From a bacterium (GTDB lineage: Bacteria > 4484-113 > JAFGCY01): 64,000 nt of DNA. The notes under the pieces were generated by a model that did no database searches, was not told where the DNA came from, and was given only the letters and a program-made list of their open reading frames with translations. Positions 6,562 to 31,183 of this stretch are shown here, in pieces. The stretch is taken from assembly GCA_020440605.1 (NCBI GenBank), contig JAGRNT010000005.1:128404-192403 (forward strand), read 5' to 3'. Made by a program: the position numbers and the translations under genes. Every line of letters starts with the position of its first letter. The stretch's first letter is position 1.

Positions 6562-7416
6562 TCAGCCACTGCGCTTCAACAGCCCCGTGCGCTTGGCATA
6601 CTTCTCCGCCATCAGGAAGATGAAGTAGCCGAGCGGCAGGAACACCGCGCCGGTGATCACGAGCCCCAGCAACTCCTGGCCCAGCGCGGAAAGAGGTGCG
6701 CCTTCCAGCAGGGCCTTCCTTTGCGCCGTGAGCGCCCAGTAGGCGGGGCTGGCAACCGCCGCGCCCTGCAGCCAGGCTGGCAGCACGCTGATCGGGTAGT
6801 AGACCCCGCTCACGAGCAGGATCACCGCCAGCAGGATGTGCGTGCCCTGCGCCCCCTTCTCCGGGCTGATCAGCGGCAGCACCGCGGCGATCAGGCCCAG
6901 CCCGACCACGGCGAAGCTGCCGATCACCAGCACGACGAGCGCGCTTACGATGTTGGCATTGCTGAGGTCGATGTGGAAGAACCAGACGAGCAGGCCCATC
7001 ATCAGGATGATCCTGACGATGCCGTAGAGCACTGCGAAGGCGCAGACCCCGAACAGATGCGTCAGGCGGTGGATCGGGGCCATGAAGGTGTACTCCAGCG
7101 TGCCCTCCCAGCGCTCCCAGGCCACGGTTTCGGCAACGATGATGAACAGCACCGAGAGGTAGCTCCACATGATCGCGCCGATCAGCAGGTAGAACACGTA
7201 GGGCTGCTCGCCGGCATGCGCGGGGGCCGCGCCGCTGGACATCCCGATCAGGCCGATGATCACGGCGTTGATCAGGTTGTAGGTCAGCCAGACGATGTCC
7301 CAGCCGAGGTAGCGCTTCGTCAGGTCGATGTCGCGCATGATGAAGGCCCGGATCGCCGAGAGTTCGCGCCAGAAGCGCGAGCCGCGGCCGCCGAGCCGTT
7401 GTTCGTTGACAGACAT
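6562..7416 (-). CDS. ABC-2 family transporter permease
   Basis: 284-aa ORF with 6 predicted TM segments of ABC-2 type. Perfect AAGGAGG SD 7 nt upstream of ATG 7416. Presumed partner of the ATPase at 15107-16075. Confidence 0.8.
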   Translation of the reverse strand: MSVNEQRLGGRGSRFWRELSAIRAFIMRDIDLTKRYLGWDIVWLTYNLINAVIIGLIGMSSGAAPAHAGEQPYVFYLLIGAIMWSYLSVLFIIVAETVAWERWEGTLEYTFMAPIHRLTHLFGVCAFAVLYGIVRIILMMGLLVWFFHIDLSNANIVSALVVLVIGSFAVVGLGLIAAVLPLISPEKGAQGTHILLAVILLVSGVYYPISVLPAWLQGAAVASPAYWALTAQRKALLEGAPLSALGQELLGLVITGAVFLPLGYFIFLMAEKYAKRTGLLKRSG

Positions 7417-7426
7417 TGTGTCCTCC

Positions 7427-7552
7427 TTTCCGAGGTTGTAGGATCTGGGTTGTGGGGAGTAGGGCTGGTGTCATGCTGCGCATGACCGGCAGCCCCTGGC
7501 GATGCCTGCGGCATCGCATCTGCTACAACCTACAACCTAGATCCCAGCTCCT
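7427..7552. repeat. MITE-like inverted-repeat element (family A: GGTTGTAGG…CCTACAACCTAG arms around internal palindromes)
   Basis: Left arm gaggttgtaggatctgggttgtgggg; central palindromes catgctgcgcatg and gatgcctgcggcatc; right arm ctacaacctacaacctagatcccagctcc. The right arm contains the stop codon and last codons of GNAT-1. Confidence 0.5.
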
Positions 7553-8079
7553 CGTTGCCATTGCTCACGGGAGATGCCGTAGTACACGGCCCCGTGCCAC
7601 TCACCCCTGCTGAATTCCTCGCAGGGCCTGATTCCGTAAAGCTGCATGCCGCACAGCTCGAGTCCGCGCCGTGCCGCATGGTGGTCGTCCATCGTCTCCG
7701 CACAGACATGCCGGATTGCGTAGTTGCCAAACAGCCAGCTGATCATCAGCCGCTTGGCTTCCACGCCGTAGCCCCGGCCGCGCAGCTCCGGGTGGATCCG
7801 CGTGCCGATCACAGCGCTCCACATGAAGCCGTCGTGCGAACTGTAATACTCATTGCCAATATGCCGGCCCGTTGCCAGCTGCTCCACGGCAAAGCAGCCG
7901 TACTCCGCTGACAGCAACCCGCTGCGTGAGAATTCGCGCCGGTCACGGATGCCCGGCTGTGGAACCGGCCCCCAGAAGGGGTTGCCTTCCCGGGCCTCGA
8001 GCTGCCGCCAGGCCTCGTACTCCGCGTAGTCACGGTAGGGCCTGAGCCGGATGCGCGCGCCATTGACAATCAGCTGCAT
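7537..8079 (-). CDS. GNAT family N-acetyltransferase (RimL/Acetyltransf_3-like), paralog 1
   Basis: ATG at complement 8077-8079 (MQLIVNGARIRLRPY…). Motif HPELRGRGYGVEAKRLM matches the acetyl-CoA-binding motif A. The 299-aa track ORF is an upstream over-extension. Confidence 0.75.
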   Translation of the reverse strand: MQLIVNGARIRLRPYRDYAEYEAWRQLEAREGNPFWGPVPQPGIRDRREFSRSGLLSAEYGCFAVEQLATGRHIGNEYYSSHDGFMWSAVIGTRIHPELRGRGYGVEAKRLMISWLFGNYAIRHVCAETMDDHHAARRGLELCGMQLYGIRPCEEFSRGEWHGAVYYGISREQWQRGAGI

Positions 8080-8080
8080 C

Positions 8081-8647
8081 TCAGCCGGCCCTCCGCACCG
8101 CGTGGCGGTAGTCCATTGCCTCCCACTCAGCGCGCGTGATCTGATAGGCAGCCGTCGCCTCGCGCCGTCCCCTGCACCAGTGCACGCAGGGTCGCAGACC
8201 GGCCGGGCGCATGCCGGCAAGTTCCATCCCGCGGATCGCCGCGGCGTGCGTTGCCACCGTGATTGCGAACAGCGATTCAAACGGATAGTTCTCGAACAGC
8301 TGGCAGGCCAGCAGCTGCTTGGCCGCGACACCGTACCCGCGCCGCTGCCAGGCGGGACGGATGAAGGTCCCGAGGTAGGCACTGAGACTCGGCAGCACGG
8401 CGGTGCTGCTTTCCTCATAACCGACGACCTCGCCACTGGCCAGGTCCTCGACAGCGAAGATGTTCAGGCCCTGCTCCGAGATGTAGCCGGAGGACATGAA
8501 GTCGCGCCGCTGCTCTGCAATCGGCCAGTGATGCGGACCCCACTGCTCGTTGCCACATTCCAGCTCCTCGTGCACGAGCACGAGATACTCATCCGCATCC
8601 CTGAAGGGCCGGATCCGCACCCGTTCATTCTGATAGACCGTATACAT
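8081..8647 (-). CDS. GNAT family N-acetyltransferase, paralog 2
   Basis: ATG at 8645-8647 (MYTVYQNERVRIRPF…). Motif QRRGYGVAAKQLL. C-terminus …WEAMDYRHAVRRAG. 1-nt gap to paralog 1. Confidence 0.75.
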   Translation of the reverse strand: MYTVYQNERVRIRPFRDADEYLVLVHEELECGNEQWGPHHWPIAEQRRDFMSSGYISEQGLNIFAVEDLASGEVVGYEESSTAVLPSLSAYLGTFIRPAWQRRGYGVAAKQLLACQLFENYPFESLFAITVATHAAAIRGMELAGMRPAGLRPCVHWCRGRREATAAYQITRAEWEAMDYRHAVRRAG

Positions 8648-8648
8648 G

Positions 8649-9212
8649 TCAGCTCCTCCTGACCCTGTGGCGGTAGTCCATTGCCTCCCACTCACTGCGC
8701 GAGATCTGGAAATAGATCACGCTGACCCAGCCACCCTGCCGGTAATGGCAACAGGGGCGGATTCCCAGGCAGCGCATCCCGCACAGCTCCAGCCCGCGGC
8801 GGGCCCGCTCATGCGTCCAGACCGTGTCAGCCATCACGGTCTGCAGCGGGTGGTTCTCGAACAGCATGCTGATCAGCAGCTGCTTGGCCTCCATCCCGAA
8901 TCCGCGCCGCTGATGCTCGGGACGGATAAAGGTCCCGATCCAGGCCGTCAGGCGCGGCAGCGTCAGCGGCCCGACTTCCTCGTAGCCCACCGCCTCGCCG
9001 CTATCCAGGCGCTCGATGCAGTACATGCGCCGGCCGTTCTCCGAGATCATGCCGTTGTCAGCGAAGTCCCGCCGCACGGCGGGCACGGTTTCATGGTAGG
9101 GACCCCAGTGGGCATTCGGTGTGCGGTTCTCCTCACTGAAGATCCGCAGCACCTCATCCTCACTGTGGAAGGGCCGCAGCCGTACGAGCTGCCCCTCATA
9201 GATCTGATGCAT
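8649..9212 (-). CDS. GNAT family N-acetyltransferase, paralog 3
   Basis: The track start is TTG at 9218; the first ATG is at 9210-9212 (MHQIYEGQLVRLRPF…). Motif HQRRGFGMEAKQLL. C-terminus …WEAMDYRHRVRRS. Confidence 0.75.
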   Translation of the reverse strand: MHQIYEGQLVRLRPFHSEDEVLRIFSEENRTPNAHWGPYHETVPAVRRDFADNGMISENGRRMYCIERLDSGEAVGYEEVGPLTLPRLTAWIGTFIRPEHQRRGFGMEAKQLLISMLFENHPLQTVMADTVWTHERARRGLELCGMRCLGIRPCCHYRQGGWVSVIYFQISRSEWEAMDYRHRVRRS

Positions 9213-9214
9213 GT

Positions 9215-9769
9215 TCAACTCCTGGCAACCACGTGCCGGTAATCCATTGACAGCCAGTCGCGCCGGCTGATTGCATAGAAAAGCTTGGCGACGTGCCGGC
9301 CGCAGCTGAAGTGCGCCGCGGGCTTGAGCCCGATGTAGCGCATCCCGCAGCGCTCCAGGCCGCGGATCGCCGCCGTATGGCCCTCAAGGGTCACGGCGTA
9401 GAGCGTGTCCAGCGGCAGGTTCTCGAACAGGAAGCAGGCCGCGAGCCGCTTGGCCTCCGAGCCGAAGCCGCGCCGGCGCCAGGCCCCGAACAGATGCGTG
9501 CCCGTCCAGTAGCTGAGCAGGTCACTGTGCAGGTTCAGGTAGCCCGCCATGCTGTTGCCGGCAAGTTCCTCGATGGCCCAGGTCAGGCCCTGCTCCAGAT
9601 CCAGCCCGCCATTGGCTGCGAAACGCTGCACCTGCATCGCCGAGGCCCCATGCCAGGGACCCCAGAGCCCAGGCGGGTCCTCAAGGCTGCTGGCCGTGAT
9701 CCTGGCCCATTCAGCTTCGCTGGCAACAGGCCGGATCCGCACCTGCTCGCCTGTGTAAGTGGTGTACAT
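9215..9769 (-). CDS. GNAT family N-acetyltransferase, paralog 4
   Basis: Starts MMYTTYTGEQVRIRPV (two consecutive ATGs, 9772 and 9769). Motif WRRRGFGSEAKRLA. C-terminus …LSMDYRHVVARS. Confidence 0.75.
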   Translation of the reverse strand: MYTTYTGEQVRIRPVASEAEWARITASSLEDPPGLWGPWHGASAMQVQRFAANGGLDLEQGLTWAIEELAGNSMAGYLNLHSDLLSYWTGTHLFGAWRRRGFGSEAKRLAACFLFENLPLDTLYAVTLEGHTAAIRGLERCGMRYIGLKPAAHFSCGRHVAKLFYAISRRDWLSMDYRHVVARS

Positions 9770-9772
9770 CAT

Positions 9773-10327
9773 TCAACTCCTGACAACCGCATGGCGGTAG
9801 TCCATCTGCTCCCATTCACTGCGCATGAGCTGGAAGTAATGTGTGTCAACGTAGCGGCCGCGCACGAAGTGCGAGAGCCGGGTACTGCCGGCAGGGCGGA
9901 AGCCCACGGCCTCCAGCCCGGCGCGGCTGCGCGCATGCACTGCAGTTGTGTCGGCCCAGAGTGACTCAAGCGGGAAGTTCTCGAACAGGAAGCACATGGC
10001 CAGCAGCTTGGCCTCGCGGCCGAAGCCCCGGCTCATCTGCGCCGGGATGATCCCCGTGGCCGGGAAGGCCGTGAGCTGCCAGCGGCCGATGCCGCAGTAT
10101 TCCAGCCCGACGAACTCTCCGTTGTCAGTGCGCTCAATCGCAAAGGCGAAGCTGTCCATGGATGTGGCCAGGCGCTGCCACTCGGATGCACTGCGCGCCG
10201 CCACATCCCACTGGATGCCGAGGTGCTCATTGGGCGAGACCGCGTAGCTGCGCACATAGGCGGCGAACTCCGCCTCGCTGGCGAAGGGCCTGATCCGAAC
10301 TTGTTGTCCTGCGTATGTTGTATACAT
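9773..10327 (-). CDS. GNAT family N-acetyltransferase, paralog 5
   Basis: ATG at 10325-10327 (MYTTYAGQQVRIRPF…). Motif MSRGFGREAKLLA. C-terminus …WEQMDYRHAVVRS. The track ORF is over-extended upstream. Confidence 0.75.
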   Translation of the reverse strand: MYTTYAGQQVRIRPFASEAEFAAYVRSYAVSPNEHLGIQWDVAARSASEWQRLATSMDSFAFAIERTDNGEFVGLEYCGIGRWQLTAFPATGIIPAQMSRGFGREAKLLAMCFLFENFPLESLWADTTAVHARSRAGLEAVGFRPAGSTRLSHFVRGRYVDTHYFQLMRSEWEQMDYRHAVVRS

Positions 10328-10441
10328 ATCTTCAGGTTGTAGGAGCTGGGTTGTAGGACATAGGGGATGTGTCGAGCTTCGCTCGACCTGATCAACCATG
10401 GTGACGCGGAGCGTCACACCAGCCCTACACCCGACAACCTA
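10328..10441. repeat. MITE-like inverted-repeat element, family A copy
   Basis: aggttgtaggagctgggttgtaggacatagg – gtgtcgagcttcgctcgac – ggtgacgcggagcgtcac – ccctacacccgacaacctagctcctatgtcct. It abuts the ATG of paralog 5 and contains the stop codon of paralog 6. Confidence 0.55.
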
Positions 10442-11002
10442 GCTCCTATGTCCTCTCCTTACGATTTCCCTGATCGGCAAGCGTTCCCAGTCCTCACGCA
10501 TGATCCGGTAGTAGATCCGTGCCGTATGGCCGCCCTGGCTGTACTGAGCAACTCGCTGACAGCCGCAGCGCTGCATCCCGATTGCTTCCAGTCCGCGGGC
10601 GGAGCGCCTGTGGTTTCCCAGTGTGACCGCCCAGACGGAGTGCAGCGGGAAATTCTCGAACATGTGGCACAGGGCCAGCAGCTTGGCTTCACGGCCGTAA
10701 CCGCGGCTGCGCTGCTCACTGAGGATTTCCGTGCCGATGCTGCCCGCCAGCTGGTCGCGTTGCGGCCGGGCGTTCACCCAGCCCACATGTTTACCCTTGC
10801 CGACCTGCTCGACTGCGAAACAGGTCTCCAGCCCGCTGGCAAGATTGAGGCGGTAACGCTCGACTGCGTCGTCAATCCGCCAGCGACAGTCACCGAACTG
10901 CGCATTGAGCATGGAGAACTGCACCGTGCAGAATTCGCGCAGTTCCGTCTCGTCCCTGAAGGGCCGGATCCGCACCAGCTGTCCCGTGTATGTCGTGTAC
11001 AT
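10439..11002 (-). CDS. GNAT family N-acetyltransferase, paralog 6 (subfamily ending WERLPIREIVRRGHRS)
   Basis: ATG at 11000-11002 (MYTTYTGQLVRIRPF…). Motif QRSRGYGREAKLLA. The last codons …GHRS* are encoded inside the repeat arm. Confidence 0.75.
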   Translation of the reverse strand: MYTTYTGQLVRIRPFRDETELREFCTVQFSMLNAQFGDCRWRIDDAVERYRLNLASGLETCFAVEQVGKGKHVGWVNARPQRDQLAGSIGTEILSEQRSRGYGREAKLLALCHMFENFPLHSVWAVTLGNHRRSARGLEAIGMQRCGCQRVAQYSQGGHTARIYYRIMREDWERLPIREIVRRGHRS

Positions 11003-11114
11003 AACTTCAGGTTGTAGGAGCTGGGTTGTAGGACATTGGGGGTGTCGAGCTTCGCTCGACCTGAATAATCATGGTGACGCGAAGCGTCACACCAGCCCTA
11101 CACCCTGCAACCTA
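11003..11114. repeat. MITE-like inverted-repeat element, family A copy (about 90% identical to 10328-10441)
   Basis: aggttgtaggagctgggttgtaggacattggg…gtgacgcgaagcgtcac…ccctacaccctgcaacctagctcctatgtcc. Confidence 0.55.
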
Positions 11115-11675
11115 GCTCCTATGTCCTCTCCTTACGATTTCCCGGATCGGCAAACGTTCCCAGTCTTCACGCATGATCTGGTACTTCACCCTGGCAACAC
11201 GCGTGCCCCGGTGCCGGAAGGCGCAGGGGATCGTACCCACATGCCTGAAGCCCAGTGCCTCAAGTCCGGCCCGGGCCCGGGTGTGCACGGCCAGGGTGTC
11301 GGCCCAGACGGATTCGATCGCGAAGTTCTCGAACAGGTGGCAGATTGACAGCAGCTTGGCCTCACGGCCGAAGCCCTGGTGCCAGTGCTCCCGCAGGATC
11401 TCGGTGCCGACGCTGGCCGCCAGCTGGTAGGTGCCGAGCACGGCGCTGACCCAGCCGATGGCCTCGCCGCTGTCCAGCCGTTCGATGCAGAAGCGCTCCG
11501 CCGCCTCATGCGAGATCGAGTTGCCAAAGCGCTTCCGGCTTTTGATCGCGCGGTGCCAGTCATCACCCCAGAAATCACTGAGCGTGATGAACTGGCGGCT
11601 GGAGAACTGCCAGAGCTCATCCGCATCGCGGAAGGGCCGCAGCTTTACTCTCTCACCTGTGTAGACAACATGCAT
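11112..11675 (-). CDS. GNAT family N-acetyltransferase, paralog 7
   Basis: ATG at 11673-11675 (MHVVYTGERVKLRPF…). Motif WHQGFGREAKLLS. C-terminus …WERLPIREIVRRGHRS. Confidence 0.75.
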   Translation of the reverse strand: MHVVYTGERVKLRPFRDADELWQFSSRQFITLSDFWGDDWHRAIKSRKRFGNSISHEAAERFCIERLDSGEAIGWVSAVLGTYQLAASVGTEILREHWHQGFGREAKLLSICHLFENFAIESVWADTLAVHTRARAGLEALGFRHVGTIPCAFRHRGTRVARVKYQIMREDWERLPIREIVRRGHRS

Positions 11676-11677
11676 TG

Positions 11678-11798
11678 CTCACTCCTGTTGAGGATCTAGG
11701 AGCTAGGTTGTAGGGTGTAGGGAATGTGTGACGCTTCGCGTCACCATGGTTATTCAGGTCGAGCGAAGCTCGACACCTACCCTAGGTCCTACAACCTA
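11678..11798. repeat. MITE-like inverted-repeat element, family A copy
   Basis: gaggatctaggagctaggttgtagggtgtaggg – gtgtgacgcttcgcgtcac – gtcgagcgaagctcgac – cctaggtcctacaacctagctcctacaccc. Confidence 0.5.
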
Positions 11799-12368
11799 GC
11801 TCCTACACCCTCGTTTCACTGTATTCCGGATCGGCATGCGCTCCCATTCCTCGCGCATGATCTGGTAGAGCGGCACTGCCACCTGCTGGCCGGCATGCCA
11901 GTGGATGCAGGGATACAGCCCGATCCGCCGCATCCCGACCGCCAGCAGCCCGGCCTGGGCCCGCAGGTGTTCAGCCGTGGTATCCGCCCAGACGGTCTGG
12001 ATCGGGAAGCTCTCGAACAGGTGGCAGAGCATAAGCAGCTTGGCCTCACGACCGAAGCCCCGGCTCCAGTGCCGCCTGTCAATCACGGTCCCGAGCCAGG
12101 TTGCCAGCCGGCCTGCGGCCGGCACGCCGAAGCTCTCGATGCCGATGCATTCACCCGTGTCCAGGCGTTCGATCGCCAGACTGTTCTCGCCCTTGTCATC
12201 CAGCAGTTCTCCGTTGCTGAACTCGCGGTCCAGTTTGCTGGCAACGGTGTGGTACGGCCCCCAGAAGGGGCTGTAGCTGAACTCATGCGAGGCCTGCAGC
12301 TGTTGCCATTCCTGCAGGTCCCGCACCGGCCGCAGCCTGACGAGTTCACCTGTGTAGACATTGTTCAT
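11796..12368 (-). CDS. GNAT family N-acetyltransferase, paralog 8
   Basis: ATG at 12366-12368 (MNNVYTGELVRLRPV…). Motif HWSRGFGREAKLLM. C-terminus …WERMPIRNTVKRGCRS. Confidence 0.75.
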   Translation of the reverse strand: MNNVYTGELVRLRPVRDLQEWQQLQASHEFSYSPFWGPYHTVASKLDREFSNGELLDDKGENSLAIERLDTGECIGIESFGVPAAGRLATWLGTVIDRRHWSRGFGREAKLLMLCHLFESFPIQTVWADTTAEHLRAQAGLLAVGMRRIGLYPCIHWHAGQQVAVPLYQIMREEWERMPIRNTVKRGCRS

Positions 12369-12491
12369 TCATCACTCCAATTGAGGATTTAGGATCTCGG
12401 TTGTAGGACCCAGGGGATGTGTCGAGCTTTGCTCGACCAGAATGATTCCGGTGACGCGAAGCGTCACACAAACCCTACTCCCTACAACCTA
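12369..12491. repeat. MITE-like inverted-repeat element, family A copy
   Basis: gaggatttaggatctcggttgtaggacccagggg – gtgtcgagctttgctcgac – ggtgacgcgaagcgtcac – ccctactccctacaacctagctcctacaccc. Confidence 0.5.
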
Positions 12492-13061
12492 GCTCCTACA
12501 CCCTCGCTGCACCGTCTGCCTGATTGGCAGCTTTTCCCATTCATCGCGCAGGATCCTGTAACAGGGCGATGGCAACAGTCTGCCGGCCTTGTAGAGGTAG
12601 CCGTAATGCTTGCCGGCCAGCTGCATCCCGCAGGCCATCAGCCCGGCCTTGGCCCTGCTGTGCTCGTCCGTGGTGTCCGCCCAGACGCATTCGATCGGAA
12701 AGTTCTCGAACAGGTGGCAGAGATTGAGCAGCTTGGCCTCGCGGCCGAAGCCCTGGCCCCAGTGCTGCCTGGCAATGATCGTGCCGATCCAGGTGTTCGT
12801 GCGCGTTGCATTCATCCCGCCGTACTCCTCGAAGCCGACGGCCTCGCCGGTGTCCAGGCGCTCGATCGCGAAGCAGGAGTACTCGTCCGTGGACAGCATC
12901 CCGCCCGGTACGAACTCCTTTCGCTTCTGGAGTTCCGGCCAGTGCCAGTCCCCCCAGAATTCGTTGAAGTTGCTTTCCATGTCCGTCTGCACCTTCATCC
13001 ATTCATCCAGATCCCTGAAGGGTCTGATCCGGGTGCGCTCACCCGTGTACACAACATGCAT
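12489..13061 (-). CDS. GNAT family N-acetyltransferase, paralog 9
   Basis: The track start is TTG at 13073; the ATG is at 13059-13061 (MHVVYTGERTRIRPF…). Motif HWGQGFGREAKLLN. C-terminus …WEKLPIRQTVQRGCRS. Confidence 0.75.
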   Translation of the reverse strand: MHVVYTGERTRIRPFRDLDEWMKVQTDMESNFNEFWGDWHWPELQKRKEFVPGGMLSTDEYSCFAIERLDTGEAVGFEEYGGMNATRTNTWIGTIIARQHWGQGFGREAKLLNLCHLFENFPIECVWADTTDEHSRAKAGLMACGMQLAGKHYGYLYKAGRLLPSPCYRILRDEWEKLPIRQTVQRGCRS

Positions 13062-13074
13062 TGCTCTCTCCAAT

Positions 13075-13145
13075 AGTGGTGAGTGCTCAGTGGTCAGAAT
13101 TCAGATCAACCTGACTACTGACCACTGACTACTGACCACTCTCCT
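13075..13145. repeat. heptamer tandem/inverted repeat array (CTGACCA/CTGACTA), family B
   Basis: cagtggtcag … ctgactactgaccactgactactgaccact. Overlaps the last codons of paralog 10. Confidence 0.45.
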
Positions 13146-13674
13146 GCCATTCACTCCGTGTGATCCCGCAGTAGACGATTCCCGTCCACTTTCCGCGGGA
13201 GTACCAGTTGACCCGGGTCCGGCCCAGCTCACGCATCCCGCAGCTCAGCATCCCGCCGATCGCCGCCTGATGGCTGGCCAGCGTCCCGCCGTAGACCATC
13301 TCCACCGGGAAGTTGTCAAACAGCAGCTGCATGGCCAGCTGCTTGGCCTCCCGGCCGTAACCCCTGCGCCAGTGCGGCTCGAGGATCATCGTGCCGATCT
13401 CCGTGGCGGTGCGGCTGCCCGTCGGGAAGCGCAGCACCTCGTAGCCGACCAGCTCCCGCTCCGCCAGCGTCTCGATTGCCAGGAAGGAGAAGTAGTGCGA
13501 CTCGTCCAGCATCCCGCAGCGGGACCAGTCCTGCTCGAGTGAGGACAGTGCCGTCCAGCCGTAGCCCCACCAGTCGTCGCGCTGCATCCACAGCTCATGG
13601 TTGAGCTGTGCATACTCCGCGGCGCTGGCGAAGGGCCTGAGCCTGACGAGCCTGCCTTCGATTGTCATCTGCAT
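13129..13674 (-). CDS. GNAT family N-acetyltransferase, paralog 10
   Basis: ATG at 13672-13674 (MQMTIEGRLVRLRPF…). Motif HWRRGYGREAKQLA. Confidence 0.75.
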   Translation of the reverse strand: MQMTIEGRLVRLRPFASAAEYAQLNHELWMQRDDWWGYGWTALSSLEQDWSRCGMLDESHYFSFLAIETLAERELVGYEVLRFPTGSRTATEIGTMILEPHWRRGYGREAKQLAMQLLFDNFPVEMVYGGTLASHQAAIGGMLSCGMRELGRTRVNWYSRGKWTGIVYCGITRSEWQESGQ

Positions 13675-13679
13675 ACCAG

Positions 13680-13792
13680 TGCTCCTTCGGAACAGTAAGT
13701 GGTCAGTAGTCAGTGGTCAGTAGTCAGTGGTAAGGAAGGATTCAGTCTGACCACTGACCACTGACTACTCACCACTCACTACTGTCCAGCGA
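13680..13792. repeat. heptamer inverted repeat array (GTGGTCAGTAGTCAGTGG … CTGACCACTGACCACTGACTACT), family B
   Basis: Two opposed arrays of 7-nt units flank aggaaggattcagt. Together they form a long imperfect hairpin. Confidence 0.45.
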
Positions 13793-14360
13793 ATTCCCGC
13801 CGCTGCTGCTCGGCCAGTTCCCGGTAGGCCGGGGCGATCCAGCCGTAATGGTGCACCGCCACCGGCTCACCGAGCCACATCTGCATGCGCTCGAACACCA
13901 CCTCCAGCTCATAGCCGCAGTCCTTCAGCCAGCCGGCCTTGGCGGCTTCCGGCTCGATGATCTCGCAGCCGATCCGCACGGGGTCGTGCCAGTCCATCAT
14001 CAGCGACTCATAGGCCTTCAGCAGGTCGATGCCGACGGCGTCACGGTCCGCGATGTTGTCATCGACATGCACCGTGGTCCAGTAGACGCGGTTCTGGCCG
14101 CGCTGGATCAGGAAGCCCACCACACCGCCGGCCCTGCGCACCGCGACGTAGTACTTCTCCCCGCTGCTCCAGAGCCCGGGGTCCTTCTCGTCCTCGAACT
14201 TCTTCTTCAGCCGCTGCAGGGTCCAGGGCGTGGGCTTGCGTTCGCAGGGGTTCTGCGCCATCAGCGGGGCCAGCTGCTCGAGGTCCTTCTCCAGCACGGG
14301 GCGCAGCACGATATGCTCGCCCTCCACGAAGCCGCGTTCGGTGTTTGCGTTGTCAGTCAT
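13779..14360 (-). CDS. GNAT-like acetyltransferase, divergent paralog 11
   Basis: ATG at 14358-14360 preceded by an AGGAGA SD (MTDNANTERGFVEGEHIVLRPVLEKD…). Motif IVLRP plus a GNAT-like core. More divergent than paralogs 1-10. Confidence 0.6.
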   Translation of the reverse strand: MTDNANTERGFVEGEHIVLRPVLEKDLEQLAPLMAQNPCERKPTPWTLQRLKKKFEDEKDPGLWSSGEKYYVAVRRAGGVVGFLIQRGQNRVYWTTVHVDDNIADRDAVGIDLLKAYESLMMDWHDPVRIGCEIIEPEAAKAGWLKDCGYELEVVFERMQMWLGEPVAVHHYGWIAPAYRELAEQQRREFAGQ

Positions 14361-14970
14361 TTCCGTTCTCCTGTGTTCCATTCTCTCGTTCAGTCATGTT
14401 GCCACCGTTCCCACGGTGGACTTCCGCCAGCCAGGGCTGGCTGCGCCATTCCCGGCGCGTGATCACCCAGTGGCTCATCGCCGCGTGACTGCCGGCGCTG
14501 TACTGGCTGCAGGGCACGAGACCCTCGCAGCGCATCCCGCAGCGCCGCAGTCCGGTCAGGGCCCGCACATGCGTTGCCAGGGTCCGGGCGCTGACGCGTT
14601 CCACCGCGAAGTTCTCAAACATGTAGCACATTGCCAGGCGCTTGGCCTGCATGCCGAATCCGCGGCTCCAGTGGCGCCTGAGGATCAGCGTACCGATCAG
14701 GGCGTCGAGCTGGCCCTCGCACATCGGTGCGAGGATCTCGATGCCCACCGCCCGGTCATCCGTGCCGTCAGTGATCGCCAGCTGGCCCCAGCTGCCGTTG
14801 TCAATTCCGCTGTCACGCTCGAAGGTGCTGCGCAGAACCCGTTCGGTGCGCCACATCGGACCCCAGAACGGGTTGAACTCGTCCTCCAGCCCGCGCCGGA
14901 CGCGCATGAATTCATCCAGGTCCCTGAAGGGCCTGAGACGCACTGGTCCTGCGGCGTAGTGCAGCTGCAC
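14353..14970 (-). CDS. GNAT family N-acetyltransferase, paralog 12
   Basis: GTG start per the track (MQLHYAAGPVRLRPF…); no nearby in-frame ATG. Motif HWSRGFGMQAKRLA. First GNAT after the ABC ATPase. Confidence 0.65.
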   Translation of the reverse strand: MQLHYAAGPVRLRPFRDLDEFMRVRRGLEDEFNPFWGPMWRTERVLRSTFERDSGIDNGSWGQLAITDGTDDRAVGIEILAPMCEGQLDALIGTLILRRHWSRGFGMQAKRLAMCYMFENFAVERVSARTLATHVRALTGLRRCGMRCEGLVPCSQYSAGSHAAMSHWVITRREWRSQPWLAEVHRGNGGNMTERENGTQENGND

Positions 14971-15106
14971 GGCTCAGCGCCGTCCGGCTGCCTGGTTCGC
15001 TGGCAGGACCCGCCTGCCTGTGCCTGTCATTGTCATTGTCATTTCCCATTTCCTTTTCCCTGGATTTCCCGCGGACGATTCCGCGGGATGCTGCGGATGC
15101 GGCCTG

Positions 15107-16075
15107 TCAGGTCTGGTCCACATCCTCCTCCGCGCTCAGCCATTCGTGGCCGGTCAGTTCCATGAACACCGCTTCCATCCCCGGAGCCGCATCCCCCCTG
15201 GAGGCCTCCCCGCGCTCGATGCGCCGCGCCAGCACCTGCTGCTTCAGTTCCTCAGCCGTGCCGCGGGCCACGAAACGGCCCTCCGCCATCAGCGCGATCC
15301 TGCCGCAGAGCCGCTCCACCTCGTCCATGTCATGGCTGGTGAGCAGCACCGTGGCATCATGCGTGCGCTGCAGCTCGAGGATGTAGTCCTGCACGTCGCG
15401 CTTGCTGCGCGGGTCGAGACCCGTGGTCGGCTCGTCAAGCAGCAGCAGCACAGGGCTCGTCAGCAGCGCGCGCGCGATTGCCACCTTCTGCTGCATTCCG
15501 CGGCTCAGCTCCTGCATGCTGTCCGTCAGCCGGCCCTCCTCGAGCCCCAGCTTCTGGAGGATCTGCTCGGCGCGCTTCAATGCCGACCTGTCGTCAACAC
15601 CGTAGAGCCGTGCCGCATACAGCAGGTTCTCGTTCGGCGACAGCTTCTTGAAGAAGGCCGCATCCACGCTCACGCGGTTCAGCAGGCGCTGCACCTGGTA
15701 GGTGCTCTTCAGCGGGTCCATCCCGAACACGCGGATATCACCGCTGCTCTGCTCCAGCAGCGTGCTGATCATGCGGATCAGCGTGCTCTTGCCACTGCCG
15801 TTGTGCCCGACCACGCCGAAGATCTCGCCGCGCCTGAGCGTCATGCTGATGTTGTCAACAGCCAGCTTCTTCTTCTTCGGCCGGGCGATGCCGCGCCACA
15901 GCTTCGCGAAGCCCGAGGCAGGCGGCAGTTCCTTCTTCGGTACATTGACGATGAAGTGCTTGCTGAGGCCACGGAGCTCCAGGGCATCCGTGGCCGCATC
16001 CACCTGCATCAGTTCCAGTTCCGGGTGCAGGGGCCGGTGTTCGATCGCATCCATGTTGTCATCTCCTGCGGGCAT
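15107..16075 (-). CDS. ABC transporter ATP-binding protein (ABC-2 exporter type)
   Basis: Walker A GHNGSGKST, signature LSRGMQQKVAIARAL, Walker B LLLLDEPTTGLD, H-loop TSHDMDE. The ATG at 16073-16075 overlaps the methyltransferase stop. Confidence 0.85.
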   Translation of the reverse strand: MPAGDDNMDAIEHRPLHPELELMQVDAATDALELRGLSKHFIVNVPKKELPPASGFAKLWRGIARPKKKKLAVDNISMTLRRGEIFGVVGHNGSGKSTLIRMISTLLEQSSGDIRVFGMDPLKSTYQVQRLLNRVSVDAAFFKKLSPNENLLYAARLYGVDDRSALKRAEQILQKLGLEEGRLTDSMQELSRGMQQKVAIARALLTSPVLLLLDEPTTGLDPRSKRDVQDYILELQRTHDATVLLTSHDMDEVERLCGRIALMAEGRFVARGTAEELKQQVLARRIERGEASRGDAAPGMEAVFMELTGHEWLSAEEDVDQT

Positions 16076-16899
16076 CACTGCCCGTCCTTCCGGCGGCAGG
16101 TGTAGATCAGCTCTCCCCGCCGTTCACTGAGTGCCGCTCCCTCATAGGAGGACAGCACCTGTGCCGCCTCCAGCCCGCTGAGTTCCAGCAGCAGCAGCAT
16201 CTCGTTGTGGGTCATCCAGCGCATTCCGAAGCGCTCCTCGGCGTTGTCAACGACCCGCCCTGCGGCATCGAGCCGCTCGAGGCGCATCGTCACATCATGC
16301 CGCTGCAGGCCGGAGTCAGTGCTGATGCGGGTGTAACGCCGCAGCAGCCCGCCCTCCGCACACTCCTCTTCCATGTCCTGCTGGAATCGTCCCTCGGCAC
16401 CATAGGCACCGATTTTGGCGAAGTCCGGGTCGAACAGATCCAGCACCAGCCGGCCGCCATCCGTGAGCTGGCGGCGCACGCAGGCCAGACAGGCCCGCTG
16501 CTCATCCGTCGCCAGCAGGTGCTGGAAGGCCCGGAAGGGGATCAGTACCAGATCGAAACGCTGCTCCAGCGCGAAGTCCTGCATCCCGGCCTGCACGGTG
16601 CTGATCCGCTCGCGGACTTCCGCGGGCTCGCTGGCAAGCTTCTCCTCAAGCCGGGCGAGCATCTCGGAACTCAGGTCGAGTGCCGTGACGCGGTGACCGG
16701 CACGGGCCAGCGGAATGCTGATCCGGCCGGTGCCGCAGCCCAGTTCGAGGATCTCGCAGGCCGTTCCGCCGGCGCAGTCCAGCCAGAACTGCAGGTCCAC
16801 GGCGCTGCGGAATTCGTAGAGCTCGTCGTACCAGCGCGCGATCGCGCCATAGTTGGTGTAGACGTTGCCAGTATCTTGCGTTGTCGTCTCGCCTTGCAT
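16075..16899 (-). CDS. class I SAM-dependent methyltransferase
   Basis: ATG at 16897-16899 (MQGETTTQDTGNVYTNYG…). SAM-binding motif LELGCGTGRISIPLARAGHRVTALDLS. Confidence 0.7.
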   Translation of the reverse strand: MQGETTTQDTGNVYTNYGAIARWYDELYEFRSAVDLQFWLDCAGGTACEILELGCGTGRISIPLARAGHRVTALDLSSEMLARLEEKLASEPAEVRERISTVQAGMQDFALEQRFDLVLIPFRAFQHLLATDEQRACLACVRRQLTDGGRLVLDLFDPDFAKIGAYGAEGRFQQDMEEECAEGGLLRRYTRISTDSGLQRHDVTMRLERLDAAGRVVDNAEERFGMRWMTHNEMLLLLELSGLEAAQVLSSYEGAALSERRGELIYTCRRKDGQ

Positions 16900-17334
16900 G
16901 GAAATGCTCCTGATGCCTGGGGTCGGGATCCGACGGCGGGACAGGCTGTACACGAACGGACGCCTGATCCGGGTCAGATCTGTACAGGTCTGTGGGTGGG
17001 TGGGGAATCCTGCCTTGTCAGCAGGCGTGAATCAATGGAAGAAGCAGAACCCAGTGTGACCGGTACGGATGCGCTTGCCGTCGAGCGGCTTTCTGTTCAT
17101 GTTCATCGCATGTACCTCCTTCACTGGGATTCTCCGCAATGCGGATGTTGCCGGTATTATACCCGGATTGAATGATCTGGCAAGCACCTGCAGCGGCTTT
17201 TCTGCGCAGCACGGTGATCCGGGACATTATTAGTTTCTGGAAATTCCCGGGATTACGGACCGGGAGGCCGTGGCTGGTCGCATTCACGTTGCCAGAATGC
17301 GATGCAAAGCGGGGGAATCAGCAGGAAGCGGCGA

Positions 17335-17583
17335 TCAGCCGGGCGCTTCCTCGCCGCCGAGGCTGCTCTTGATCTTGCTGAGCATGCGGTTGCGGCAGTC
17401 CTCGCTGACACTTTCCTGCGGCTCGCAGTTCTTGATCTTGCTCAGCAGCTTCTCGATCACCTGGCGTTCGCGGGCGCAGTCCCCGCACTTCTCGAGGTGG
17501 TCGCGTGTCGCCTCAAGCTCCGCCTCGCTGCTTTCGCCGTAGACGAAGTTGAATATCACATCCTGAATCTTCTTGCAGTCCAT
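17335..17583 (-). CDS. anti-sigma factor, zf-HC2 type
   Basis: MDCKKIQDVIFNFVYGESSEAELEATRDHLEKCGDCARE… is the canonical N-terminal pattern, with an HLxxCxxC zinc-finger motif. Lies directly downstream of the ECF sigma. Confidence 0.6.
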   Translation of the reverse strand: MDCKKIQDVIFNFVYGESSEAELEATRDHLEKCGDCARERQVIEKLLSKIKNCEPQESVSEDCRNRMLSKIKSSLGGEEAPG

Positions 17584-17687
17584 CTCAGTCGTCCTTGCAC
17601 CGGCGGGTGATGTTGCCAATTCCGGCTCCCCGCGGCTCTCCAGCCTGACCATCCAGTTCCGTCCGTTCCCGAAGCCCCTTCACGCGC

Positions 17688-18314
17688 TCAGTCCTCTTCA
17701 ACGCCCAGCCAGCGGCGGAGCTTGTTGACTGCATAGCGCATCCGCGAGAGCACCGTGCTCAGCGGACATTCGCAGATCTCTGCGATTTCCTCGAAGGTCA
17801 GTTCGTGGTAGATCTTGAGGATCACCACGGTACGCTGCTTTTCTGGCAACCTGTCTATCAGTACCTTGAGGGTTTCCGAAAAATTCTCACGCTCCAGCAC
17901 GTTTTCGGGCAGATCCCGGAAATCCTCGATGAAATCCTGCCGCTCACTCTCGCTGCCCTCGTCACCGACGGGCGTGTTCAGCGAGAAGGTCTGCTTGGCA
18001 GCGCTCTTCTTCCAGTGGCGCTTGACTTCATTGAGGGCGATCTTGTAGACCCAGCTCGAGAACTTCTTCGAGGTGTCGAAGTTCTTCGAGCTCTTGAAGA
18101 CGCGCAGGAAGACTTCCTGCACAAGGTCCTCGATGTTCTCGCGCTCACTGACCTGCTTGCGGATGAAGTTGTAGATCTGCTTGTGGTAGCGGTCGAAGAT
18201 CTGGTCGAAGGCCGCGGCATCGCCGGCGGCGAGCTGCATCACCAGCTCCTCATCGCTGCCCGGCGCCGGGAGGCTCGCCACTTCAAGATTCCTGCTGTCT
18301 GCTGTGCTTTCCAT
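17688..18314 (-). CDS. RNA polymerase sigma-70 factor, ECF subfamily
   Basis: Region 2 (DLVQEVFLRVFKS…FSSWVYKIALNEVKRHW) and region 4 (LTFEEIAEICECPLSTVLSRMRYAVNKLRR) are both recognisable. Confidence 0.85.
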   Translation of the reverse strand: MESTADSRNLEVASLPAPGSDEELVMQLAAGDAAAFDQIFDRYHKQIYNFIRKQVSERENIEDLVQEVFLRVFKSSKNFDTSKKFSSWVYKIALNEVKRHWKKSAAKQTFSLNTPVGDEGSESERQDFIEDFRDLPENVLERENFSETLKVLIDRLPEKQRTVVILKIYHELTFEEIAEICECPLSTVLSRMRYAVNKLRRWLGVEED

Positions 18315-18328
18315 GTACCGCTTCCAGT

Positions 18329-18745
18329 CTACCCGCTGTCCCCGTTGTGCTGCAGCTCCACCAGTTCCGTGAGCACCCCGCTGGCACTCTTCGGGTGGAT
18401 GAAGAACACCCGGCCCTCGGCCCCCTGCTTCGGGGCCTCATTCAGGAGTGTCAGTCCGCCGCTGCCCAGCCGTGCATGGGCCTCGTCCACATCAGTGCTC
18501 GCGAAGCAGAGGTGGTGCAGGCCCTGGCCGCGCTTCTCGAGGAAACGCTGCACGCTGCCCGCCGGGTCCGTGGCCTCCAGCAGCTCGAGCTTGATGTTGC
18601 CCTGCAGCATCGCGATCCGCACACCCTCGGAAGGCACTTCGTGATACTCCACTTCGGACTGCGGATAGGACAGCAGCTCGCACCAGACCGGCACTGCGCT
18701 CTCCAGTGATTCCACCACGATTCCGATGTGATCCAGGCTGAACAT
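18329..18745 (-). CDS. methylmalonyl-CoA epimerase / VOC family protein
   Basis: LDHIGIVVESLESAV…GLHHLCF…GVLTELVE is typical of methylmalonyl-CoA epimerase. 138 aa. Confidence 0.65.
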   Translation of the reverse strand: MFSLDHIGIVVESLESAVPVWCELLSYPQSEVEYHEVPSEGVRIAMLQGNIKLELLEATDPAGSVQRFLEKRGQGLHHLCFASTDVDEAHARLGSGGLTLLNEAPKQGAEGRVFFIHPKSASGVLTELVELQHNGDSG

Positions 18746-18916
18746 GTTGCTTAGATTCTAATGCGTCCGCTGGGGACATCCCGGCTTGCTACCGGTCAAG
18801 CCCGGACTTTGTTTCATCATGCCCCCTGCAGCTGCGGCAGCCTGCTTCTCGCTTGCAGCCTGCTTCAGATTGATGCTGCAAATGCTTCATCAACGTTAAG
18901 GCTCATGCCGGCTTTG

Positions 18917-18946
18917 TTGATAACTTTGTTGATACAATGTTAATAT
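18917..18946 (+). promoter_or_regulatory. candidate promoter for the TPR/beta-barrel gene
   Basis: TTGATA-N17-TTAATA (or N18-TAATAT) in an AT-rich patch of the divergent intergenic region. Confidence 0.25.
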
Positions 18947-19045
18947 CCGCGGCATTCGGGCCAGGTGGGCTTATCCCCGCCGCCTGAGCGGAGAACACGC
19001 AAGGCAAAGAGGAACAGAGGAACGGCCGCATAGGCGGCCGAAGGC

Positions 19046-30574: not shown

Positions 30575-31183
30575 CTATTCGAACAATACCTTTGACGTTA
30601 CTCTGTTTCCATTCTTTGCAAAACTATTTCCCAAGTTACGTGATTGCATTAGTGATTCAATGTTTACTACAGCACCAAAAGTGATGAATACATTATGAAA
30701 TCGATTAAAGTTCTGTCCCCAATAGATCATCGCACAGGACATTGGAGCACCTTTCCCCGTGTCTTTGCCGCATTCCAAAAATTTCAGTCTTGTGTCATAT
30801 AGGAAGCATATTCCGTTAGCTGCGCCCCACACGCTATTCTTCCAATGTGAAGTATTGGTTGCCACCGGTACTAAAGCCAATACTTCTGAGCCAAATTGTA
30901 TATGAGCCATATAACATTTTTCTAACCAGGAACTAATACGCGTTCCTCTTTGATGATCTTTGCCATAAGGTGGATTTACATAAATCGTTCTATAATTCCA
31001 AGTGTTTGCTAAGCCATCATTATCTGGTAGCATCCACTCAGTTTCTGCATTAACAATAGAATATTCACTTGAGCAAGGATCTAGTAATATTTGTCCACCG
31101 AAGAAATCTCGAACTGCATTAACATACTTTGCGGGTGTTCCCCAGTCTTGGCGTTTAGTGTAGATTGTGCGACCAGCGGTCAT
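30575..31183 (-). CDS. DNA N6-adenine methyltransferase, phage Dam-like (PF05869-type)
   Basis: ILLDPCSSEYS and YVNPPYGK (the DPPY-class motif IV). The first ATG at 31181-31183 overlaps the upstream gene's stop (ATGA). The gene is AT-rich compared with the rest of the window. Confidence 0.7.
   Translation of the reverse strand: MTAGRTIYTKRQDWGTPAKYVNAVRDFFGGQILLDPCSSEYSIVNAETEWMLPDNDGLANTWNYRTIYVNPPYGKDHQRGTRISSWLEKCYMAHIQFGSEVLALVPVATNTSHWKNSVWGAANGICFLYDTRLKFLECGKDTGKGAPMSCAMIYWGQNFNRFHNVFITFGAVVNIESLMQSRNLGNSFAKNGNRVTSKVLFE

Follow-up and report, generated by a model that had tools for sequence, protein, structure and literature searches.

The minus strand of the window, the 64-kb stretch of contig JAGRNT010000005.1 analysed here, carries an operon in which the ATPase and permease genes of an ATP-binding cassette (ABC) exporter of the ABC-2 type are set apart by 7.7 kb of cargo. 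We tentatively interpret this operon, with somewhat less than even confidence, as a leader-attenuated, translation-stress-inducible system which would cap amine-bearing toxins and export them, as judged from its sequence. From position 18314 down to 6562 the order is extracytoplasmic function (ECF) sigma factor, anti-sigma, leader, methyltransferase, ATPase, 12 open reading frames (ORFs) resembling GNAT acetyltransferases (G12 to G1; ~185 residues) and permease (Table 1). The original prediction, made from the letters alone, had described an ATPase, 12 GNAT genes and a permease behind an ECF sigma/anti-sigma pair, and this layout is confirmed on the minus strand, as are the tight junctions that it quoted within the array (a single nucleotide at 8080 and at 8648, two at 9213-9214 and none at 9772/9773) and the AAGGAGG Shine-Dalgarno (SD) sequence ahead of the permease. 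The methyltransferase and ATPase genes overlap by 4 nt (GTG start) or 1 nt (ATG start), the ATPase overlapping the methyltransferase stop codon, and the gap between anti-sigma and methyltransferase measures 381-435 nt, depending on the starts chosen. An exact-match lookup of the ATPase sequence with the GTG start returned no match. Neither such an array nor such a leader was found described in searches of the open-access literature, consistent with the earlier statement that no described system has this layout.

The permease was searched for by exact peptide patterns in one genome per species (185,579 species), a scan which reaches close relatives only, and seven species genomes were found to carry the layout. 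These are labelled UBP7, "Planctomycetales bacterium" or "bacterium", include one complete genome (CP060262.1), and all appear to belong to candidate phylum UBP7. The nearest by protein matches is the metagenome-assembled genome AC1.30 (JAWLAZ010000001.1), the flanks of which are 94% identical to the window at the DNA level and the permease 100% identical. The order methyltransferase, ATPase, GNAT-like genes and permease is constant in the matching genomes and in five further metagenome contigs. Counted with a hidden Markov model (HMM) of the array, the GNAT-like ORFs between ATPase and permease number 6-13 across the window and 11 related loci: 13 in L018, 12 in the window, L013 and L004/L016, 11 in L003, nine in L014 and L015, six in L008, L009 and L010, and at least five in L017, which lies on a cut contig. 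The synteny of ATPase, GNAT genes and permease, which the original prediction had proposed to look for in related genomes, is kept in 11 of 11 related loci, with no case of a transporter standing apart from the array; since the layout is kept in every relative found, the arrangement is not a recent accident. Identity across lineages is 77-100% for the permease, 73-96% for the ATPase, 73-100% for the sigma factor and 67-75% for neighbouring genes, and the methyltransferase diverges faster (42-63% between lineages).

The HMM built from the array makes exactly 12 matches within the window, all of them in the array, where pairwise identity among paralogs is 22-53%. Eleven of the 12 ORFs score above the gathering threshold of Pfam family Acetyltransf_3 (PF13302; 32-51 bits vs a cutoff of 25.4, E-values 2e-7 to 2e-13), and the G-x-G of motif A in the coenzyme A (CoA) loop, for which the GNAT pattern is Q/R-x-x-G-x-G/A, is invariant in these canonical GNATs. 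The original description of twelve RimL-like GNATs stands for these eleven and needs amendment for G11, a degenerate and, from its sequence, probably inactive GNAT. G11 has no significant Pfam match (E 0.035), and its beta4-alpha3 CoA-pyrophosphate loop is shortened (DR-DALG vs RGFGREA in canonical members). Despite this sequence degeneracy its AlphaFold model is confidently that of a GNAT fold (predicted local distance difference test score, pLDDT, 88.5; best Foldseek match 3shp at 2e-11), as is the model of one canonical member (pLDDT 88.8). The fold neighbours of canonical members are a lasso-peptide acetyltransferase (the top match of one GNAT), RimJ, PA3270, SpeG, PAT and ArsN, and those of G11 also include AAC(6'). 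Fold search as a guide to GNAT substrate proved uninformative, all GNAT subfamilies falling within ~10-fold in E-value, and the NCBIfam scan, which covered G7 and G11 only, gave no family for either, including no RimI/J/L equivalog model. A natural fusion of canonical GNAT and pseudo-GNAT (P0156, 398 residues) is present in three independent assemblies, which suggests that both kinds of subunit work as a pair, and G11 probably pairs with the catalytic GNATs of the array. The canonical subfamily is small, as a profile search of 1.84 billion representative proteins gave only 38 clusters at E 1e-30 or better. The GNATs may act as acyl-CoA-dependent N-acyltransferases on xenobiotic amines. Other bacteria contain single polypeptides with 2-5 tandem RimL-like GNAT domains, such as P0167 (857 aa), P0173 (681 aa), P0199 (1170 aa) and many of 360-420 aa, which are only distant kin of the array members (~40 bits per domain).

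The neighbour-joining tree of 113 array members contains ortholog groups which are common to several species and collinear along the arrays. Between the window and L013 or L018, the ratio of nonsynonymous to synonymous substitution rates (dN/dS) is 0.08-0.33 for ten members (all but G12 and G4; 0.09-0.33 for the nine compared among G10-G1, G4 left out) and 0.15 for the permease, so that the ten tested members are maintained by purifying selection. The most conserved of all is G11 (84-100% identical across clade A, ~50% to clade B; dN/dS 0.077 vs L013), and in clade B the pseudo-GNAT is present in two to four copies, mostly directly 3' of a canonical GNAT. G12 has no ortholog in any relative examined (best match 37-40%) and is absent even from L003, the 94%-identical locus, while orthologs of G6 and G2 occur only in L018 and L013, respectively. 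The window and L003 differ by one indel (G12), one extra L003 copy, one same-slot replacement (G6 vs L003_7) and one loss (G2). Even genomes that are nearly identical gain, lose and exchange cassettes, and this turnover together with purifying selection fits a defence or resistance locus.

The best match of the methyltransferase in the PDB is CorZ (9SOT; 2.8e-38, full length), followed by PCZA361.24, CypM, CcbJ, MitM and ToxA, all of which we take to be N-methyltransferases of natural products. The best curated NCBIfam model is that of the daptide methyltransferase, which is matched over the Rossmann half only, at 126 bits vs a cutoff of 175. CorZ methylates the free N-terminus of myxarylin, a tripeptide of the group of peptides made by ribosomes and modified after translation (RiPPs) (PMC12951456). 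By homology the enzyme is probably an amine or N-terminal N-methyltransferase. This kinship and the RimJ/RimL type of the GNATs mean that both enzyme types point to free amino groups as target, be they those of xenobiotics, peptides or proteins, and with them the modify-then-export logic of the original prediction remains plausible. The ABC ATPase is of the DrrA/ABCA type (219.5 bits to TIGR01188 drrA vs a cutoff of 312) and the permease scores 49.5 bits to TIGR01247 vs a cutoff of 223; by these scores the pair is DrrAB-like and not a member of the DrrAB subfamily. The exporter substrate is presumably related to the substrates of the array enzymes. In the ATPase, the first two beta-strands are separated by a basic stretch of ~25 inserted residues (K.F...W...RP.KKK..AVDN; window 15880-16000), which is common to the orthologs from UBP7, Firmicutes and Chloroflexota.

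The gap ahead of the methyltransferase had been described as a non-coding leader, which is wrong, as it holds a near-consensus sigma-70 promoter, a strong SD and a conserved 24-codon ORF. The promoter (TTGCCA-16-TATAAT) agrees with the consensus at 11 of 12 positions, where 0.2 such sites are expected by chance, and is located at the same position in nine loci. At the 5' end of the transcript is a stem-loop (UCCGCAUUGCGGA), two pairs of which are changed on both sides yet still paired across lineages. The leader ORF (MNMNRKPLDGKRIRTGHTGFCFFH), preceded by the SD GAAGGAGG, is present in the same arrangement in all clade-A relatives, in which the transcribed leader, counted from its predicted start up to the methyltransferase ATG, has a length of 253-259 nt. 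The peptide has a conserved core, RKPLDGKRIRTGHTG, which reads RTPLDG... in L014; the window and L009 differ at four nucleotides within codons 5-20, every one of them a synonymous change. The N-terminal part of the peptide is conserved and the C-terminal part variable, with the window peptide ending in FFH; at this position clade B encodes an unrelated peptide 23-24 residues long.

The leader RNA 3' of the small ORF is predicted to be structured, and the hairpin just past the stop codon has all four of its pairs compensated. A pyrimidine tract at the ORF end (17040-17046) is the predicted pairing partner of the methyltransferase SD (16905-16911). The pyrimidine-rich last codons are complementary to this SD, which would account for C-terminal residues that are restricted in their variation to F, C, L and S. 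For the SD of the leader itself, pairing with codons near the ORF end is likewise predicted in the UBP7-A leaders, not clearly in L004. Across the leader alignment, pairing holds in 89.9% of the cells of the predicted structure vs 25-44% with partners slid, and the predicted SD-masking helices are 88-98% paired (few independent sequences); as five independent sequences enter the counts and the alignment used for testing also yielded the structure, these statistics are no more than suggestive of an SD-masking structure. Rfam gave no match to the leader at gathering thresholds, and chance-level matches only at E up to 1 (window, L019 and L023), and a known RNA family was rejected accordingly. 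By analogy, the leader ORF may sense ribosome stalling.

Leaders of this design are not confined to UBP7. The permease family is large, with more than 6,700 homologous proteins, and its Firmicutes and Chloroflexota members are 53-58% identical to the window permease, their ATPases being 55-60% identical to the window ATPase with the same N-terminal basic insert; the picture outside the phylum comes from five loci (L019-L023). Anoxybacter fermentans (L019) and a second spore-forming Firmicute (L023) have adjacent ATPase and permease genes and no enzyme genes. Ahead of both pairs lie a consensus promoter, an SD in a similar context (AGGAGGTCGTG) and a 34-38-codon ORF starting MI(K/M)xRF, with the leader SD predicted to pair with codons near the ORF end. 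After the leader ORF the scan found two intrinsic terminators in Anoxybacter, along with the promoter, and two hairpins with T-runs were read from the sequence of L023, which the scan did not report. In the Chloroflexota ortholog (L021), two hairpins come after a leader ORF of 40 codons, and ATPase and permease are also split by GNAT genes. With similarly built leader ORFs and predicted terminators before enzyme-free transporters, and a design which agrees with the ribosome-mediated attenuation of bmrB-bmrCD, the ORF is much more probably a regulatory leader peptide than the precursor of a RiPP, and on sequence the leader-ORF design appears to recur before members of one family of ABC-2 transporters in three phyla or more. 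Related permeases in the other two loci (L020 and L022) adjoin a glycosyltransferase.

No evidence was found that the sigma factor governs the operon. The original prediction supposed a single sigma-controlled transcript from the sigma gene to the permease, a view that is not supported, as the operon has its own sigma-70 promoter and leader ORF, the conserved ECF-like motif TGAAACAA-N16-CGGTA is confined to the region upstream of the glyoxalase-sigma-anti-sigma unit, and L008 has TerC in place of the sigma pair upstream. The motif was not found ahead of the methyltransferase operon, and an ECF-dependent promoter there was rejected. A regulatory link from sigma factor to operon is not supported, adjacency being common, and read-through from the sigma unit into the operon may occur. 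The ECF sigma gene is probably co-transcribed with the upstream glyoxalase/vicinal oxygen chelate (VOC) gene. The anti-sigma is small, soluble and RsrA-like, with the motif HxxxCxxC and an NCBIfam antisig_RsrA match at 1.5e-9, below the family cutoff. Upstream of the glyoxalase-sigma unit (window 18746-18960), the ECF-type motif is accompanied by a conserved GTATCAACAAAGTTATCAACA element which is DnaA-box-like; TTATCMACA sites occur only twice in the whole window, consistent with chance, so a DnaA-box cluster upstream of the glyoxalase gene was rejected.

Relatives carry other cargo besides GNATs (Table 1). Three clade-B lineages (L004, L008 and L015) encode a divergent RtcB RNA ligase just before the permease, and an APH-family kinase lies inside the L015 array. 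In Chloroflexota L021 the interval between ATPase and permease holds genes for the ribosome-assembly GTPase RsgA and two GNATs together with a basic ORF of 76 residues, and the locus has AadA_C, APH and Eis-like genes as neighbours. The presence of RtcB, APH and RsgA shows that the slot collects translation-related and antibiotic-modifying functions in different lineages. Clade-B arrays also share a conserved, very basic ORF of 56-58 residues (...ASGTGAHRNRKRYxRKxKHRxDY); its YxRKxKH likeness to the ribosome-rescue factor ArfA was followed up and that identity rejected, with no support from Pfam at E up to 5 or from tblastn with E. coli ArfA. The 76-residue basic ORF of L021 is similarly placed. 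Directly upstream of the ATPase in L004, L008, L015 and L023 is a small ORF (60-91 residues, ~90 in clade B) with a shared C-terminal stretch (..DIIAVE.. / ..EIIDSE..), absent from the window's clade, where methyltransferase and ATPase overlap.

According to the explanation that we propose, a widely conserved DrrAB-type ABC-2 exporter would serve as scaffold, with the interval between ATPase and permease as a cargo slot. Transcription would begin at the operon's own sigma-70 promoter, and the behaviour of ribosomes on the 24-codon leader ORF would set downstream expression, in the manner of a BmrB/BmrCD-like attenuator which is switched on under translation stress. The putative cargo would comprise a single N-methyltransferase acting on amines or N-termini, a conserved GNAT without activity and, as its variable part, 5-12 RimJ/RimL-type N-acyltransferases of differing specificities. 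These enzymes would cap the free amino groups of toxic amines, candidate targets being aminoglycoside-like, aminoacyl-nucleoside or peptide-type translation inhibitors and toxic amino-acid analogues, and the exporter would expel the drug or the capped product. Several observations weigh against this proposal. The main one is the core-like character of the locus, which is awkward for a pure resistance role: it is core and syntenic phylum-wide, with a permease above its neighbours in conservation, which is unusual for a resistance island and fits housekeeping export too. The best homologs of the methyltransferase are RiPP biosynthetic enzymes and not resistance enzymes, and fold searches leave the GNAT subfamilies unseparated. 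The UBP7 leader lacks a T-rich terminator, so attenuation there is read from RNA predictions on the five independent sequences, and the R/K-x-R/K triplet present in six of six independent leaders is a possible arrest motif, a weak suggestion made post hoc.

Housekeeping export of an endogenous amine metabolite or envelope component, which would first be N-acetylated or N-acylated and N-methylated to give several variants on the model of ABC-2 exporters of end-modified glycans or lipids, draws on the same core-like character and is given a small but appreciable probability. The locus is vertically inherited, syntenic and present in every genome in which this permease was found, permease and ATPase are more conserved than the flanking genes, the ATPase resembles ABCA-type lipid transporters, and the permeases beside a glycosyltransferase in L020 and L022 agree with such a role; the operon, however, lacks genes for glycosyltransferases and lipid synthesis, envelope biogenesis would not be expected to be under a ribosome-sensing leader with terminators, and the RtcB, APH and RsgA cargo of relatives is unrelated to the envelope. 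It is unlikely that the locus is instead a RiPP-like biosynthetic cluster, with the 24-residue ORF as precursor, tailored by the CorZ-like methyltransferase and the GNATs, and the product exported by the ABC-2 pump. The small ORF is designed for very strong expression directly upstream of a methyltransferase whose best solved homolog modifies the N-terminus of myxarylin and whose best NCBIfam model is the daptide enzyme; a lasso-peptide acetyltransferase heads the fold matches of one GNAT, and the peptide combines a conserved N-terminus with a variable C-terminus, the FFH ending recalling biarylitide cores. The Firmicute leaders, which precede bare ATPase-permease pairs with terminators and without tailoring enzymes, nevertheless speak for regulation, and the variable C-terminal residues all come from pyrimidine-rich codons complementing SDs, which is an RNA-level explanation. 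Moreover, the daptide match is partial and below cutoff, cassette gain and loss between near-identical genomes is hard to square with an assembly line, and the genes scanned or annotated in and near the operon, in the window and relatives, include no class-defining enzyme such as a protease, cyclase, P450 or YcaO. Membership of a RiPP class of biarylitide, daptide or linaridin type was thus rejected for want of a class-defining maturase, such as the P450 BytO, the oxidoreductase/aminotransferase set of daptides or LinL, and in view of the similar leaders before enzyme-free transporters.

Modification of endogenous proteins, in which each GNAT (perhaps as a heterodimer with the pseudo-GNAT) would acetylate the N-terminus of one specific ribosomal or other cellular protein and the methyltransferase would N-methylate others, so that the translation machinery is remodelled under stress while the pump handles the drug, also seems improbable to us. 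The family Acetyltransf_3 is that of RimJ/RimL, the fold neighbours include RimJ, the methyltransferase is kin to alpha-N-methyltransferases, the ribosome-related RsgA and RtcB occupy the slot in relatives, and the paralogs are conserved one by one; no NCBIfam RimI/J/L model was reached by G7 or G11, the two scanned, and cassette presence that varies between near-identical genomes is unexpected for conserved ribosomal-protein targets. A more speculative variant, to which we assign little weight, would make the slot a stress-gated cargo site in which the shared inactive G11, interchangeable GNATs and an alpha-N-methyltransferase re-mark ribosomal or nascent N-termini upon stalling, a combinatorial translation remodelling and not drug modification. 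GNAT toxins acetylating aminoacyl-tRNA exist, and relatives carry RtcB, a ligase that repairs tRNA and rRNA, but a GNAT toxin-antitoxin or anti-phage defence array is highly improbable: the GNATs are of the Acetyltransf_3 and not the TacT/AtaT type, no antitoxin-like partner or small ORF stands beside each GNAT, the genes are embedded in a transporter operon, and PADLOC gave no match for the GNATs, the permease or RtcB. Toxin-antitoxin or phage-defence identity was rejected on the negative PADLOC result for the GNATs.

The amine-capping and export system that we favour would combine features of several known ones. The bmrB-bmrCD system of Bacillus subtilis uses a leader peptide and ribosome-mediated attenuation to control a multidrug ABC exporter (PMC4191407), and the present operon likewise has a small translated ORF with predicted stem-loops that may alternate directly upstream of exporter genes, with predicted intrinsic terminators in the homologous leaders of Firmicutes. 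The leader sequences are unrelated, however; the exporter is of ABC-2/DrrAB type here and a type IV heterodimer there, and the window has no T-rich terminator but a predicted masking of the first-gene SD, and at least 12 enzyme genes within the operon. The DrrAB daunorubicin exporter has the same combination of an ATPase with a six-helix ABC-2 permease of the same Pfam families, and TIGR drrA/drrB are the best transporter models, but the window proteins lie far below the subfamily cutoffs, the ATPase has the basic insert, and the two genes are far apart. Single detoxifying GNATs (MccE C-terminal domain/RimL, PAT/Bar, ArsN1, AAC and Eis), which transfer an acetyl group to the alpha-amine of an antibiotic or a toxic amino acid, have the RimJ/RimL-type fold and CoA loop kept here; unlike them, the array is collinear, has 6-13 members with a conserved inactive partner, and reaches no curated resistance model. 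The methyltransferase is a full-length homolog, with a class I SAM fold, of CorZ/BytZ, which acts on a free alpha-amine as the N-terminal methyltransferase for the biarylitide RiPP myxarylin, but it is fast-diverging and its operon has no P450, pentapeptide precursor or prolyl oligopeptidase. The fusion P0156 resembles two-domain GNATs with one inactive domain (e.g. MshD), whereas the window units are separate genes, unlike MshD-type and multi-GNAT polyproteins. Each component is of a known kind, and what is new is the split transporter as a cargo slot, the changeable collinear GNAT array with a pseudo-GNAT, and the recurrent leader-ORF design.

The spacers between G5 and G11 (67-120 nt) consist of large palindromic repeats (Table 1). 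The palindromic spacers of 109-120 nt each form two GC hairpins flanked by GTTGTAGG/CCTACAAC (-46 to -51 kcal/mol, z-scores -3.4 to -5.2), the element occurs nowhere else in the window, and these could be elements resembling repetitive extragenic palindromes or miniature inverted-repeat transposable elements which shape mRNA stability or cassette recombination. The two spacers beside G10 are inverted heptamer arrays forming long perfect hairpins. Elsewhere in the window, a low-GC island (30575-32322; GC 0.46 vs ~0.63 for the window) encodes on the minus strand a 380-residue protein without Pfam match and a 208-residue Dam-type N6-adenine methyltransferase (PF05869, NPPY motif), which are probably a horizontally acquired restriction-modification pair.

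Table 1. Positions of the genes, leader elements and spacers of the operon in the window, and of leader elements and cargo genes in related loci (locus name before the colon).
Feature	Position	Strand	Remarks
Glyoxalase/VOC gene	18329-18745		upstream of ECF sigma gene
ECF sigma factor	17688-18314	minus	Pfam Sigma70_r2/r4_2; adjoins operon
zf-HC2 anti-sigma	17335-17583 (longer start to 17652)	minus	82-105 residues; Pfam zf-HC2 at 1e-5
Sigma-70-type promoter	17156-17183	minus	TTGCCA-16-TATAAT
5' stem-loop of transcript	17133-17145	minus	covarying pairs
Leader ORF SD	17115-17122	minus	
Leader ORF, 24 codons	17032-17106	minus	translated sequence checked; conserved
Hairpin past leader ORF stop codon	17009-17025	minus	compensated pairs
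Structured leader RNA (predicted)	16900-17031	minus	RNAalifold and pair counts
Class I S-adenosylmethionine (SAM) methyltransferase	16075-16899 (ATG) or to 16953 (GTG)	minus	Pfam Methyltransf_25
ABC ATPase	15107-16078	minus	Pfam ABC_tran PF00005 at 1.6e-31
G12	14353-14970	minus	canonical GNAT; PF13302 at 2.4e-10
G11	13779-14381	minus	degenerate (pseudo-)GNAT; fold only
Heptamer-array spacer, inverted (CAGTGGT/CAGTAGT)	13675-13778		one side of G10 (the other at 13062-13128); -62 kcal/mol, z-score -9.0
G10	13129-13674	minus	canonical Acetyltransf_3 GNAT
Heptamer-array spacer, inverted (CAGTGGT/CAGTAGT)	13062-13128		other side of G10; -32 kcal/mol, z-score -4.9
G9	12489-13061	minus	canonical Acetyltransf_3 GNAT
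Palindromic spacer	12369-12488		
G8	11796-12368	minus	canonical Acetyltransf_3 GNAT
Palindromic spacer	11676-11795		inverted copy
G7	11112-11675	minus	canonical Acetyltransf_3 GNAT
Palindromic spacer	11003-11111		GTTGTAGG..CCTACAAC type
G6	10439-11002	minus	canonical Acetyltransf_3 GNAT
Palindromic spacer	10328-10438		GTTGTAGG..GTGACGCTTCGCGTCAC..GTCGAGCGAAGCTCGAC..CCTACAAC
G5	9773-10327	minus	canonical Acetyltransf_3 GNAT
G4	9215-9772	minus	canonical Acetyltransf_3 GNAT
G3	8649-9212	minus	canonical Acetyltransf_3 GNAT
G2	8081-8647	minus	canonical Acetyltransf_3 GNAT
G1	7537-8079	minus	canonical Acetyltransf_3 GNAT
Palindromic spacer	7417-7536		degenerate copy
ABC-2 permease (DrrB-like)	6562-7416	minus	Pfam ABC2_membrane PF01061 at 4.9e-14; own SD
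Leader element (promoter, SD, 34-40-codon ORF, two hairpins/terminators)	L019:6416-6790; L023:361-720; L021:2691-3075		no Rfam entry
Divergent RtcB RNA ligase	L004:13094-14350; L008:13729-14985; L015:8309-9565		just before permease
APH-family kinase	L015:4705-5820		inside array
RsgA GTPase	L021:4333-5313		between ATPase and permease
Basic ORF, 76 residues	L021:5527-5757		between ATPase and permease
Very basic ORF, 56-58 residues	L004:11732-11908; L008:12385-12555; L015:6441-6593		conserved in clade-B arrays
Small ORF, 60-91 residues	L004:4466-4741; L008:8336-8608; L015:626-745; L023:784-969		directly upstream of ATPase

If the proposed reading is true, a candidate phylum carries a chromosomal, leader-controlled resistance platform which would unite efflux with up to thirteen swappable amine-capping enzymes, and which would be a natural reservoir of new acetyltransferase specificities. 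Inserting cargo between two indispensable transporter genes would ensure its co-regulation, and an uncatalogued leader-ORF attenuator, for which Rfam has no family, would control one ABC-2 family in at least three phyla. The combination of a conserved pseudo-GNAT with variable catalytic GNATs, backed by the natural fusion, would suggest a modular heterodimer principle for GNAT specificity.

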